Shown in pieces: positions 59,120-59,400 of a stretch of DNA of 64,000 nucleotides (position 1 is the stretch's first letter; each line of letters begins with the position of its first letter). A program made the position numbers and the translations under genes. The stretch is from an uncultured Oscillospiraceae bacterium. Lineage in GTDB: Bacteria > Bacillota > Clostridia > Oscillospirales > Oscillospiraceae. Below the pieces are notes generated by a model. That model had not been told where the DNA came from. It saw only the letters and a program-made list of their open reading frames with translations, and ran no database searches. The stretch covers positions 30,964 through 94,963 of the forward strand of contig CAAFPE010000046.1 in assembly GCA_900764755.1 (NCBI GenBank). Reading direction: 5' to 3'.

Positions 59120-59400
59120 AAATAGCCGCCCGCAGGGCGGCCCACCAACTGCGAGCCCAGCGAAGCGGGTCGCAGTTGGAAAGGAGGGGAAAGGGAGCGG
59201 GTGGATGACGACTTTTTTGCCGCAGGTATAAAAAGTCGTCGGAGCAAAGCAGACTTTGCTCCGACGTGTAAAGGACGGTTAAAATCGATATTTTCAATGA
59301 TTGAGACAGCAGCAGGAGAACTGGCAAACCGGACTTCTGACCGGCGGCGCATTTGCGCCGTACGAGCGTTTTGCCGCAGGCAAAACCTCGGCGCAGGGCG
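59120..59400. repeat. array of at least six short GC-rich hairpins, three of them capped by the same CCGCAGG apex motif
   Basis: The hairpins are: 59125-59141 (GCCGCCC-GCA-GGGCGGC); 59145-59179 (CCAACTGCGA-N15-TCGCAGTTGG); 59207-59240 (GACGACTTTTT-tgCCGCAGGtat-AAAAAGTCGTC); 59237-59266 (CGTCGGAGCAAAG-caga-CTTTGCTCCGACG, which competes for GTCGTC); 59345-59360 (CGGCGC-attt-GCGCCG); and 59368-59386 (GTTTTGCC-GCA-GGCAAAAC). Confidence 0.6.

Follow-up and report, generated by a model that had tools for sequence, protein, structure and literature searches.

The window, a 64-kb stretch of DNA from an uncultured Oscillospiraceae bacterium, carries a tRNA-Pro(CGG) gene with a cluster of hairpins in its 3' flank (Table 1). 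This array belongs to what is left of a decayed island that had integrated at tRNA-Pro, and lies at the end nearest the tRNA. An earlier note on this DNA had offered the scar of a mobile element as one of three options for the array, and the surroundings bear this out: at the boundary of the 1.5-kb islet (58002-59508) stand a degenerate copy of the 3' end of tRNA-Pro and a homolog of an element end. The copy, GGCTGGAGTG (58002-58011), matches GGTCGGAGTG (59509-59518) at 8 of 10 positions, and 58006-58077 is 86% identical to positions 10944-11016 of L014, where a tRNA fragment joins an element bearing an RT and an ATPase. Homology to the window ends exactly at 59509 in L003, L005, and L008 and at 59519 in L014, and in other strains a serine-recombinase or RT element sits between the terminator T0 and the tRNA. 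The whole islet thus has the tRNA 3' end direct repeat and the strain-variable occupancy of a tRNA-integrated island, and its att repeat is separate from the hairpins themselves. A comparison of 58960-59510 with the recombinase module of L003, L005, and L008 by blastn-short and tblastx gave zero matches, and we rejected decayed recombinase genes as the source of the array.

The tRNA-Pro gene has a perfect sigma-70-type promoter at 59631-59603 and shares T0 with the M unit, which is on the plus strand. Intrinsic terminators were recognized at T0 and, on the minus strand, at 59266-59237 (H4), 59142-59124 (H1), 59079-59051 (H0), and 59024-58997; this status is limited to those stems and does not cover P1-P3, H2, or H3. 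Between tRNA-Pro and a toxin gene on the minus strand there are five minus-strand terminator-like stems, against 2.6 +/- 2.2 expected per 2.1 kb.

Table 1. Features of the tRNA-Pro flank (positions in the window).
Feature	Position	Strand	Description
Left islet edge	58002-58077	+	tRNA-Pro 3' end copy, then left-end homolog of a strain-variable integrated element
H0 (= T2)	59051-59079	-	Hairpin, terminator-like on the minus strand; left neighbor of D1a
D1a	59080-59105	+	First copy of the 26-nt unit-leading box GTAAAGGNNGGTTAAAAYCGATATTT
N unit	59106-59266	+	A-rich leader, H1-H4
H1 (N unit)	59125-59141		GCCGCCC-GCA-GGGCGGC
H2 (N unit)	59145-59179		Additional stem
Purine-rich stretch (N unit)	59180-59204		GGAAAGGAGG
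H3 (N unit)	59207-59240		GACGACTTTTT...AAAAAGTCGTC; overlaps 8-codon mini-ORF 59205-59231
H4 (N unit)	59237-59266		CGTCGGAGCAAAG...CTTTGCTCCGACG
D1b	59268-59293	+	Second copy of the unit-leading box, directly after H4
M unit	59294-59465	+	Spacer 59294-59328, then five hairpins
P-1 (M unit)	59329-59344
P1 (M unit)	59345-59360		Additional stem
P2 (M unit)	59363-59390		Hairpin GTTTTGCC-GCA-GGCAAAAC within 59368-59386
P3 with 2-bp extension (M unit)	59391-59418		Additional stem at 59396-59414
Conserved junction (M unit)	59419-59433
P4' (M unit)	59434-59465		Additional stem
T0	59466-59506	both	Bidirectional intrinsic terminator; 19-bp perfect stem, A-run before, T-run after
tRNA-Pro(CGG)	59509-59585	-	Convergent with the array; integration point for strain-variable elements

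Two tandem units in the tRNA-Pro flank

All hairpins named in the earlier note are present at the positions it gave. The 471-nt segment 59040-59510 folded with -217 kcal/mol on the plus strand and -211 kcal/mol on the minus strand, compared with about -150 and -144 kcal/mol, respectively, for dinucleotide shuffles (z = -11.9 and -11.7). The heptamer CCGCAGG was located in three loops of the array (59130, 59220, and 59374); the whole window contains 30 copies against 13.8 expected, so that three within 250 bp represent a strong local excess. As an apex uniting the hairpins, which the earlier note had proposed, the heptamer does not hold, because the loops vary freely among relatives: the H1 loop reads GCGCAGC, GCAACGC, or CGTGCG, the H3 loop CATAGG or AATGAAATG, and the P2 loop GCGCAGC, GCGGAGC, or CCATAGG. 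The related motif pointed out near 59391 is GCGCAGG (59391-59397), which is a conserved junction of the M core and the only CCGCAGG-like site to be one, whereas the CCGCAGG loops are not conserved.

Rather than a single array of like hairpins, the region comprises two different modular units, N and M, which stand in tandem in the tRNA-Pro 3' flank and are oriented toward the tRNA. Each is headed by the same 26-nt D1 box, found twice in the window against 0.00 expected, and the plus strand of the window is the folded strand of both units. The defining order of the N-unit family (D1, A-rich leader, H1, H2 with inner GCCCAGCGnAGCGGGT, GGAAAGGAGG, H3, and H4) was found with the unit at 59106-59266. 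The order D1, spacer, P-1, core, P4', bidirectional terminator, and convergent tRNA at 59268-59585 defines a terminator-bearing architecture of the M unit that also occurs in L028, L087, L094, L096, L117, L124, L133, L141, and others.

The hairpins H3 and H4 do share a segment, but only of 4 nt (CGTC, 59237-59240), and the plus-strand minimum-energy fold contains both stems; the mutually exclusive pairing described earlier was therefore overstated. Antiterminator logic, which had been read into this overlap, also fails in that the folded strand carries no downstream gene. A cis-regulatory attenuator or antiterminator of the minus-strand toxin gene, or a leader-peptide switch acting through the 8-codon mini-ORF, could draw on the overlap, on the several terminators upstream of the toxin gene, and on the mini-ORF itself (MTTFLPQV), which is preceded by GGAAAGGAGG and overlaps H3. 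This mini-ORF is the sole conserved-looking reading frame over the region, and the ORF listing contained no convincing ORF overlapping the array, in agreement with the earlier note. However, its sequence conservation is due to the covarying H3 hairpin, and its "codons" do not keep their amino acids in relatives, which have ATGAAAATTTTTTGACATAGGCATAA, ATGAGCGAACGATAA, or a GTG-start variant. Moreover, the units also stand beside many unrelated genes and tRNAs, and the toxin gene lies on the strand opposite to the folded one, with its own promoter-like site (58966-58937) downstream of all hairpins. We consider such regulation very unlikely.

Conservation of the N and M families

N and M are sequence families spread through Oscillospiraceae, in which the stems are kept by compensatory substitutions and the loops and junctions are constant. 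The N unit was found in at least eight further loci, with covariation. In an alignment of the window with eight non-redundant homologs, compensatory changes occurred in 16 of 40 predicted pairs, H1, H2, and H3 covaried across the nine sequences, and H2 showed G-U pairs on the plus strand only. A convergent tRNA gene, or a 3' fragment of one, lies directly beside seven of the nine N units. H4 is in immediate contact with the tRNA 3' end in seven homologs, as is a hairpin near-identical to H0 in L163. No plus-strand T-run follows H4, so that a putative N transcript would continue into the M unit.

For the M unit, a covariance model (R1) comprising P1, P2, P3, and the conserved junctions was built from 103 other sequences with the window excluded, and it matched 59343-59433 on the plus strand over model positions 1-91 with 101.5 bits (E = 9e-24). 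The unit occurred at at least 118 genome loci, nearly all in Oscillospiraceae and several per genome. Among 73 M sequences, P2, P3, and the P3 extension were 100% paired. The retrieval pattern had fixed some P2 and P3-loop positions, so that the invariance of those positions is built in, and had left P1, the P3 stem, the P3 extension, and P4 unconstrained. In the same sequences, double-change cells numbered 191 versus 67 in shuffles, none of 500 shuffles reaching 191, and pairing fell from 94% to 31-48% when partners were slid. One junction pair was C-G in 42 sequences and G-C in 31, with zero exceptions. The folded strand was indicated by seven G-U pairs versus zero A-C pairs in P2-P3 and by a better fold of the plus strand in 57 of 72 M copies (p = 6e-7). 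These pair counts and fold energies led us to reject tandem minus-strand riboswitch or small-RNA units ending in terminators.

Across six same-species contigs, 59345-59433 had zero SNPs. Pusillibacter faecalis pMM59_01 retains the block of H3, H4, D1, spacer, M, and terminator in another gene neighborhood, with 78% identity over 333 bp, and the block is also kept in L141. Incidental GC-rich palindromes or leftover terminators without conserved identity might be expected in decayed island DNA, where H0, H1, and H4 score as ordinary terminators; this explanation is refuted by the match to an independent covariance model, by the block retained in the Pusillibacter replicon, and by covariation in N and M alike. 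Since throughout the family the units recur beside tRNAs and where housekeeping genes end, the hairpin cluster is a real structured RNA-like element rather than a product of chance, and it is probably mobile. The suggestion of a structured noncoding RNA or REP-like element is thus sustained in the broad sense of conserved structured elements recurring in many genomes.

Neither family corresponded to a known one. In a scan against Rfam 15, a check of the kind recommended by the earlier note, the only matches above the gathering threshold in the window were to tRNA. A permissive search of 58900-59720 gave sroB as the best non-tRNA match (32.5 bits, below the threshold of 44) and Twister-P5 on the opposite strand (20.3 bits, below the threshold of 37.6); a Twister-P5 ribozyme was rejected, as this sub-threshold match is incompatible with the covarying helices. 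No Rfam family overlapped the units at 18 loci bearing M or N, and searches of full-text literature yielded no description of either family. On inspection, a tRNA-derived origin of P4' was unsupported. We also rejected a phage origin: only six matches were found in 2.9 million viral contigs, and two GenBank records labeled "Bacteriophage sp." resemble pieces of a bacterial chromosome on which tRNA, SRP RNA, and a c-di-GMP riboswitch are encoded.

The M copies occur in two settings. Roughly 20 are terminator-bearing, with a consensus that includes P-1 and P4', and most of these adjoin a convergent tRNA gene or tRNA 3' fragment, representing at least 10 tRNA isoacceptor types. Copies without a terminator are found immediately after the stop codon, or in some cases at the start codon, of conserved genes, including aspS-, lepA-, uvrA-, and truB-like genes, and 45 of 56 gene-end copies are in 3' UTRs in sense orientation. 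Gene-end copies have at their flank a duplicate of 35-113 bp from the end of the gene (median 66 bp, median identity 93%), which in most cases terminates at the stop codon. A 7-13-nt segment at the 5' edge of M pairs with the first bases of the duplicate and closes the whole fold; the longest match between this segment and the duplicate from its first base averaged 7.0 nt, compared with 5.3 nt in controls, with a maximum of 13 nt. The mismatches between repeat copies fell at third codon positions in 63% of cases and comprised 120 synonymous and 62 non-synonymous changes, indicating that both copies evolved as coding sequence. A classical target-site duplication was rejected because it accounts neither for repeats that stop at the coding boundary nor for mostly synonymous mismatches. 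The mismatches were distributed roughly evenly over fifths of the repeat length (55, 36, 40, 52, and 65), which argues against a single right-hand crossover inside the duplicate; import of the whole arm from a related genome fits better.

The D1 box and the proposed spread of M

In many gut contigs, D1 has AAGGGAC or AAAGGAC upstream and is followed by an M unit, an N unit, or other sequences. In consensus copies, TTGGAA and TATTTT are separated by 17 nt, and the conserved spacer is quasi-palindromic and of operator-like appearance; D1 itself is a quasi-palindrome (GTTAAAAT-CGAT-ATTTTGAA). The window copies have poor -35 hexamers (ATGTAA and GTGTAA), and a promoter scan detected no sigma-70-like promoter on the plus strand near D1a or D1b. 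D1 also marks the breakpoint of homology between loci, with variable sequence on its left and constant sequence on its right (about 64 gut contigs). It was further located at serine-recombinase element ends and, on the other strand, in the 3' UTR of one protein-coding gene; in L216 and L221 the terminal hairpin of a serine-recombinase element adjoins D1, and the recombinase gene of that element is 78% identical to the one beside tRNA-Pro in L003. The position of D1 at these breakpoints and element ends again agrees with the mobile-element scar of the earlier note. Given its presence in a 3' UTR and at serine-recombinase element ends, a recombination site fits D1 at least as well as a promoter. 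D1 was rejected as a coding remnant: although KYRF* can be read from the two copies in one frame, copy b is closely preceded by a stop codon, and within a long ORF the two copies fall in different frames. A degenerate tRNA 3' end was likewise rejected, as the T-loop signature was absent on inspection.

On balance, we favor an explanation in which the D1-led N and M units specify plus-strand small RNAs and M spreads to gene ends. The plus strand would be transcribed into one or two small structured RNAs, for which D1 may be a weak sigma-A-type promoter and T0 the putative terminator. The terminal hairpin of each unit would also terminate the convergent tRNA, which would account for the series of minus-strand terminator-like stems between tRNA-Pro and the toxin gene. 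M would propagate as a non-autonomous element landing at gene ends, with terminator-bearing copies set against tRNA 3' ends and terminator-less copies past stop codons together with a gene-end duplicate. This duplicate probably provides a homology arm that can be carried along when M spreads by recombination between related genomes.

The function we infer for the units is either that of a small RNA or that of a recombination module, and the latter constitutes a possible but clearly less probable alternative. Here, D1 would be an attachment or cassette-boundary core and the hairpins would fold as single-stranded DNA for a recombinase acting in trans, so that the array would represent emptied cassettes and att junctions stacked at the tRNA-Pro hotspot, comparable to integron attC sites or IS200/IS605 ends. 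The breakpoint behavior and quasi-palindromic form of D1, its contact with the terminal hairpin of a serine-recombinase element, the tandem units each bounded by a hairpin and D1, the location inside an island remnant bounded by the tRNA 3'-end repeat, and the long attL/attR-like direct repeats of gene-end M copies are all consistent with this proposal. The strand asymmetry is compatible with either function, as folded single-stranded DNA also tolerates G-T wobble. Against recombination modules, M and N units lack a recombinase gene in the window and at most loci, and the sequences left of D1 are too diverse for the conserved arm of one recombinase. Furthermore, stems that covary freely while loops and junctions stay highly conserved are more usual for RNA tertiary structure, and the sense orientation in 3' UTRs and the plus-strand T-run after T0 suggest transcription.

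Going beyond the favored small-RNA explanation, we tentatively propose that M, and perhaps N, is the structured nucleic-acid part of a new kind of non-autonomous mobile element of about 170-250 nt. Such an element would home to gene ends, namely tRNA 3' ends and the stop or start codons of conserved genes, and would keep the target gene intact by carrying a copy of the terminal 35-113 nt of that gene, with whose first bases a segment of the element pairs to close its fold. Target pairing and the duplicate would serve as guide and homology arm for protein-free spread between species, and arrays at tRNA flanks would arise where D1, a shared promoter-operator or recombination core, links M, N, and other units. 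The gene-end architecture, with its long duplications that stop at the coding boundary, target-complementary closing helix, and mainly synonymous divergence of the repeat copies, could not be matched to any described element and points to protein-free, homology-armed spread through conserved genes.

The Oscillospiraceae are abundant and poorly studied gut anaerobes, and both unit families are conserved over many of their genera while being absent from Rfam. If transcribed, the units would be new structured RNAs systematically located beside tRNA genes and within core-gene 3' UTRs, a placement suggestive of a function in processing RNA, in insulating transcription, or in propagating the element. 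The units also mark integration hotspots and break metagenome assemblies, and they could mislead gene callers, being covered by duplicated gene ends and a spurious 90-aa ORF.

Comparison with known systems

REP sequences consist of one 20-40-nt palindrome, carry a conserved tetranucleotide at the 5' end, occur hundreds of times, and have a cognate RAYT gene. Like REP/BIME and the RAYT-mobilized REPINs of Proteobacteria, the M and N units are dispersed, GC-rich, hairpin-forming, extragenic, and non-autonomous, and often lie at gene 3' ends and in tandem. An extragenic repeat of the REP/BIME or MITE type, acting as a passive transcript-end stabilizer or terminator without a specific RNA or recombination function, would be in keeping with these properties, with the frequent association with terminators, and with the number of minus-strand terminator-like stems in the tRNA-Pro flank. 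We nevertheless consider it improbable. The units are 160-240 nt long with four or five distinct helices and conserved junctions, their unpaired nucleotides are conserved across genera more strictly than a stabilizer hairpin needs, and M has long gene-end duplications. Copy number is also apparently low, with one match in each of two large replicons (0.5 and 0.86 Mb) and one copy in the window.

The bcr1 repeats of the Bacillus cereus group and the pneumococcal BOX and RUP elements are Gram-positive intergenic repeats of roughly 100-200 nt that form stable RNA folds and are thought to be mobile and in some cases transcribed; they possess either terminal inverted repeats or modular boxes, and their target duplications are short and fixed. 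Unlike these repeats and MITEs, M has neither fixed-sequence terminal inverted repeats nor a short target duplication of fixed length: the inverted segments that close it are target-derived and differ at every locus, and its flanking direct repeats comprise 35-113 bp of the gene end.

Integron attC sites are imperfect palindromes (R''/L''-L'/R') with RYYYAAC...GTTRRRY cores, arranged in cassette arrays beside intI. No such cores flank the hairpins in the alignments inspected, and the ORF listing of the window contains no integrase gene; D1 contains GTTAAAAY, one base off GTTRRRY, outside the adjacent stem.

With islands at tRNA genes, the array shares its position against a tRNA 3' end, an islet bounded by a degenerate repeat of that end, and a larger element at exactly the tRNA-Pro point in other strains. 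Gene-end M copies resemble miniature islands in having attL/attR-like repeats and an intact target gene. In contrast to tRNA-gene islands, an M "island" can be as small as about 170-200 bp, encodes no integrase, and has many target genes with a constant internal module and widely varying repeat lengths.

The IS110 bridge RNA, the IS200/IS605 omega RNA, and the EBS-IBS pairing of group II introns offer an analogy only, in that an internal segment shows complementarity to the flanking target, or continues into it, at a precise boundary; in M, the corresponding segment is the one of 7-13 nt at the 5' edge, which pairs with the bases that begin right after P4. Target duplications of tens of bases are absent from those systems, and their folds are unrelated to M according to Rfam. 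M has no adjacent recombinase, TnpB, or reverse transcriptase gene. A retron or IS110 bridge RNA is not indicated in the window, where no RT or DEDD recombinase gene flanks the array; the RT of L014 is part of another, strain-variable element whose insertion lies beyond T0. Finally, M and N resemble orphan structured noncoding RNA motifs in their conserved multi-stem fold, covariation, invariant junctions, and restriction to one bacterial lineage, but they are absent from Rfam 15 and, instead of occupying one conserved position, recur as repeats with the hallmarks of mobile elements.

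The hairpin array and its two units

The segment from 59040 to 59510 is structured far beyond chance. Its minimum free energy was -217 kcal/mol on the plus strand and -211 kcal/mol on the minus strand, compared with about -150 and -144 kcal/mol for dinucleotide shuffles (z about -12 on both strands). All hairpins named in the earlier note were located, and the array proved to consist of two conserved structured units, N and M, which are folded on the plus strand, are convergent with tRNA-Pro, and have a terminator in common with it. Each unit is headed by its own copy of a 26-nt box, D1, which occurs twice in the window versus 0.00 expected; each copy is preceded by a hairpin and followed by a different set of stems.

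Features of the array and its flanks (window positions)
Feature	Position	Strand	Description
Gene 2 of pair	58082-58390	minus	102 aa, low-GC DNA
Gene 1 of pair	58392-58946	minus	184 aa, DUF6883 (PF21814) match, low-GC DNA
Terminator-like stems	59024-58997; 59079-59051; 59142-59124; 59266-59237	minus	
Direct repeat	59070-59105; 59258-59293		36 nt, 81% identity, includes D1 (GTAAAGGNNGGTTAAAAYCGATATTT)
D1a; D1b	59080-59105; 59268-59293		26-nt box
N unit	59106-59266		hairpins H1-H4
M unit	59294-59465		helices P-1, P1, P2, P3, P4'
M core	59343-59433		
CCGCAGG apices	59130; 59220; 59374		N-unit H1, N-unit H3, M-unit P2
Mechanical ORF	59201-59473	plus	90 aa
Mechanical ORF	59091-59420	minus	109 aa
T0	59466-59506		19-bp perfect stem, A-run before, T-run after; bidirectional terminator
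tRNA-Pro(CGG)	59509-59585	minus	
tRNA-Pro promoter	59631-59603		perfect TTGACA-17-TATAAT

The heptamer CCGCAGG had been proposed as an apex common to the hairpins. Because the whole window contains 30 copies versus 13.8 expected, three copies within 250 bp constitute a real local excess; however, the loops of H1, H3, and P2 all vary in relatives, and the heptamer is therefore not a family signature. GNA triloops with C-G closure are unusually stable, and this stability may explain the recurrence. The supposedly related GCGCAGGGCG at 59391-59400 is of another kind: the GCGCAGG within it is an M-core junction that hardly varies. Mutually exclusive pairing of hairpins 59207-59240 and 59237-59266 was not borne out, as they overlap only in CGTC (59237-59240) and both form in the plus-strand minimum-energy structure. 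The two mechanical ORFs crossing the units could be wrongly annotated by gene callers as hypothetical proteins.

Among same-species contigs, SNPs in the array were few (including 59098, 59127, 59135, 59340, and 59464); they included a C-to-T change bringing D1a closer to the family consensus and another C-to-T change, in H1, that retained a G-U pair on the plus strand only. The M core showed no polymorphism among these contigs, so all evidence of covariation comes from other species.

The tRNA-Pro flank and the island remnant

Same-species metagenome contigs show the 3' end of tRNA-Pro to be an integration hotspot. Three of these contigs (L003, L005, and L008) lose homology to the window exactly at the tRNA 3' end (59509); the element found there instead has two serine-recombinase genes at its end. 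L014 comes from the sample that also yielded L003; its homology extends to 59519, after which come TAATTATAGGACTTGG and then a reverse transcriptase gene and an OLD/AAA-type ATPase gene. The strain-variable element between T0 and tRNA-Pro (L014 11061-14327; L003 3045-5134) has junctions with an 11-bp repeat, GGTCGGAGTGC. Its end in L014 encodes a 380-aa RVT_1 reverse transcriptase adjoining an OLD-like ATPase of 676 aa (AAA_15/AAA_21/DUF2813); the two resemble a defence pair based on a reverse transcriptase, retron-like or otherwise. Its end in L003 encodes a 566-aa large serine recombinase and a 124-aa resolvase-domain protein.

The window itself carries a degenerate copy of the L014-type junction at 58002-58077, where GGCTGGAGTG matches GGTCGGAGTG and the following 66 nt are 86% identical to the left end of the reverse transcriptase/ATPase element; hence, 58002-59508 is what remains of an older island at tRNA-Pro, with the minus-strand gene pair and the entire array inside it; the array forms the tRNA-proximal end of the island. 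The gene pair looks like a toxin/immunity-type pair. The 184-aa protein has a Cys-rich motif, HCEECLMLDGCWF, at its N-terminus, and the 102-aa protein had no Pfam match. Same-species contigs differed most in the DUF6883 gene, with about 25 SNPs that cluster at 58794-58877, and a 183-aa variant occurs in some strains. With T0 and the four further stems, the units set five minus-strand terminators between the tRNA, with its strong promoter, and the toxin-like gene, a by-product requiring no further assumption; the promoter-like site of the gene pair comes after the four stems.

Conservation of the M and N units

BLAST of 59040-59510 yielded 78% identity over 333 bp between unrelated genes of Pusillibacter faecalis pMM59_01 (a 504-kb replicon) and shorter matches in Vescimonas fastidiosa pMM35_01 and two human-faecal contigs. 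Compensatory changes in three stems were already visible with five M sequences, and further loci were retrieved by a degenerate pattern from the conserved core. At least 118 M loci were found in genomes, nearly all of Oscillospiraceae among the matches listed (Oscillibacter, Flavonifractor, Intestinimonas, Pseudoflavonifractor, Dysosmobacter, Vescimonas, Lawsonibacter, and many uncultured bins), with several genomes carrying more than one; the figures for copy number and host range are minimum estimates. The closest listed relatives of the window copy belong to uncultured Oscillospiraceae. A match in L063 (Chitinophagales) looks like chance, and that in L029 (labelled Bacteroidaceae) is probably mis-binned.

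Among 73 M sequences, pairing in P2, P3, and a 2-bp P3 extension was 100%, where P2 TTTT/AAAA and part of the P3 loop are invariant by construction of the retrieval pattern and the P3 stem, P3 extension, P1, and last hairpin were unconstrained by it. The junction pair (C-G in 42, G-C in 31) was never broken, double-change cells numbered 191 versus 67 after shuffling (reached in 0 of 500 shuffles), and sliding the partners reduced pairing from 94% to 31-48%. P1 and the last hairpin differed wholly in sequence between loci, always with pairing kept. A covariance model of the M core built from 103 sequences, window excluded, detected 59343-59433 on the plus strand with 101.5 bits (E 9e-24); it scored 11.6 bits at 59194-59279 inside the N unit, with a P2-like plus P3-like arrangement in common. 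The plus orientation folded better in 57 of 72 M copies (p = 6e-7), and P2-P3 contained seven G-U and no A-C pairs. Rfam 15 gave no family match in the array region or in 18 loci bearing M or N units, and our literature search, of incomplete coverage, found no description of them.

Eight non-redundant N units aligned with 59106-59266, and compensatory changes supported H1, H2, and H3 in 16 of 40 predicted pairs. H2 combines a variable outer stem with a constant inner GCCCAGCGnAGCGGGT, and its G-U pairs occur on the plus strand only. H4 directly adjoins a convergent tRNA 3' end in seven N units, and the next D1 in the window and in contig L243. The purine-rich GGAAAGGAGG and an 8-codon mini-ORF overlapping H3 showed no conservation as a peptide in this alignment.

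A metagenome scan for D1 contexts yielded at least 121 matches. About 64 of those listed had an extended box ((T)GGAAGGGAC or GCAAAGGAC upstream) beside a hairpin of variable sequence, and the remaining 57 resemble chance matches. The sequence on the right side of D1 was of four kinds: M units, N units, 3' ends of a conserved protein gene encoded on the opposite strand, and a hairpin with a tRNA only. In the third context, D1 lies about 25 nt past the stop codon of a gene with the C-terminus ...EQTGPVL (contigs L160, L168, L172, L177, L191, L193, L194, L199, L202, L205-L207, L209, L210, L212, L216, and others), and a terminator hairpin is always next, with a different sequence in every contig.

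The plus strand of the units would be transcribed, as suggested by the retained plus-strand T-run after T0, the sense orientation of most gene-end copies within 3' UTRs, and a consensus D1 of TTGGAA-17-TATTTT; against this, the -35 hexamers of the window D1 copies are poor and a promoter scan found nothing. The conserved quasi-palindromic spacer of D1 suggests a binding site for a protein. A role as a recombination core is equally possible for D1, as it is located at homology breakpoints and, in contigs L216 and L221, adjoins the terminal hairpin of an element with a serine recombinase, a relative of the element at tRNA-Pro in L003.

Terminator-bearing and gene-end copies

About 20 M copies, including that of the window, bear a terminator. 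Their parts are ordered as D1, a spacer of ~35-45 nt, P-1 (CCGGCCTTCTGGCCGG), core, P4' (GGGTGGAGCCGCCC...GGGCGGCGGAACCC), A-run, and bidirectional terminator. In most copies, the next feature is a convergent tRNA gene or tRNA fragment whose 3' end adjoins the terminator (tRNAs including Leu, Arg, Gly, Ser, Ala, Cys, Pro, Val, Lys, and Glu). Where a newer island lies inside the tRNA (L014 and L028), the M unit remains joined to the displaced fragment. Tandem units occurred in L096, L100, L022, and L023. The latter two (MT838705 and MT837775) are labelled 'Bacteriophage sp.' in GenBank; they contain tRNA genes, a c-di-GMP-I riboswitch, SRP RNA, and translation-factor-like ORFs, and they resemble pieces of bacterial chromosome more than phage.

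About 80 gene-end copies contain neither D1 nor terminator and have a last hairpin of another type (GGGNCCC-stem-GGGRA), directly followed by a duplicate of the neighbouring gene's final 35-113 nt (median 66 nt, 93% identity). Of 56 copies analysed, 45 have as their neighbour a long ORF running in their own direction, with the repeat ending at its stop codon or no more than a few bases away; a minority have an inverted neighbour and a repeat that stops at the start codon, as in the truB-like gene of Vescimonas (56-bp repeat). At that site in V. fastidiosa NZ_AP023416 (L021 4900-5177), a single M module sits between a DHH-phosphoesterase gene and truB, with the opening 56 nt of truB as a direct repeat on either side; 8 nt ahead of the retained truB start codon, the module edge contributes a new ribosome-binding site, AAGGAG. 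Target gene ends recur across species, with C-terminal sequences resembling aspS, lepA, uvrA, and truB. The linker between gene and P1 contains a 7-13-nt segment complementary to the duplicate from its first base, so that the module is closed by a helix of target-derived sequence; at the lepA-like site, this segment varies in step with synonymous changes of the gene.

Mismatches between repeat copies were evenly distributed, with 63% at third codon positions and 120 synonymous versus 62 non-synonymous, and at several loci the two copies differed in the stop codon or last residue. Both copies appear to have evolved as functional coding sequence, which would imply an origin in different genomes and hence spread of the M module between related bacteria by homologous recombination, with the duplicated gene end as an arm. 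Detectable homology would stop at the coding boundary because untranslated donor and recipient sequences had diverged. Tandem arrays in which a gene-end duplicate plus module is repeated two or three times (L044, L045, L085, L099, L109, L125, L128, L140, and L039) are consistent with unequal recombination between repeats. Relatives of the M and N units are dispersed, with hallmarks of mobility.
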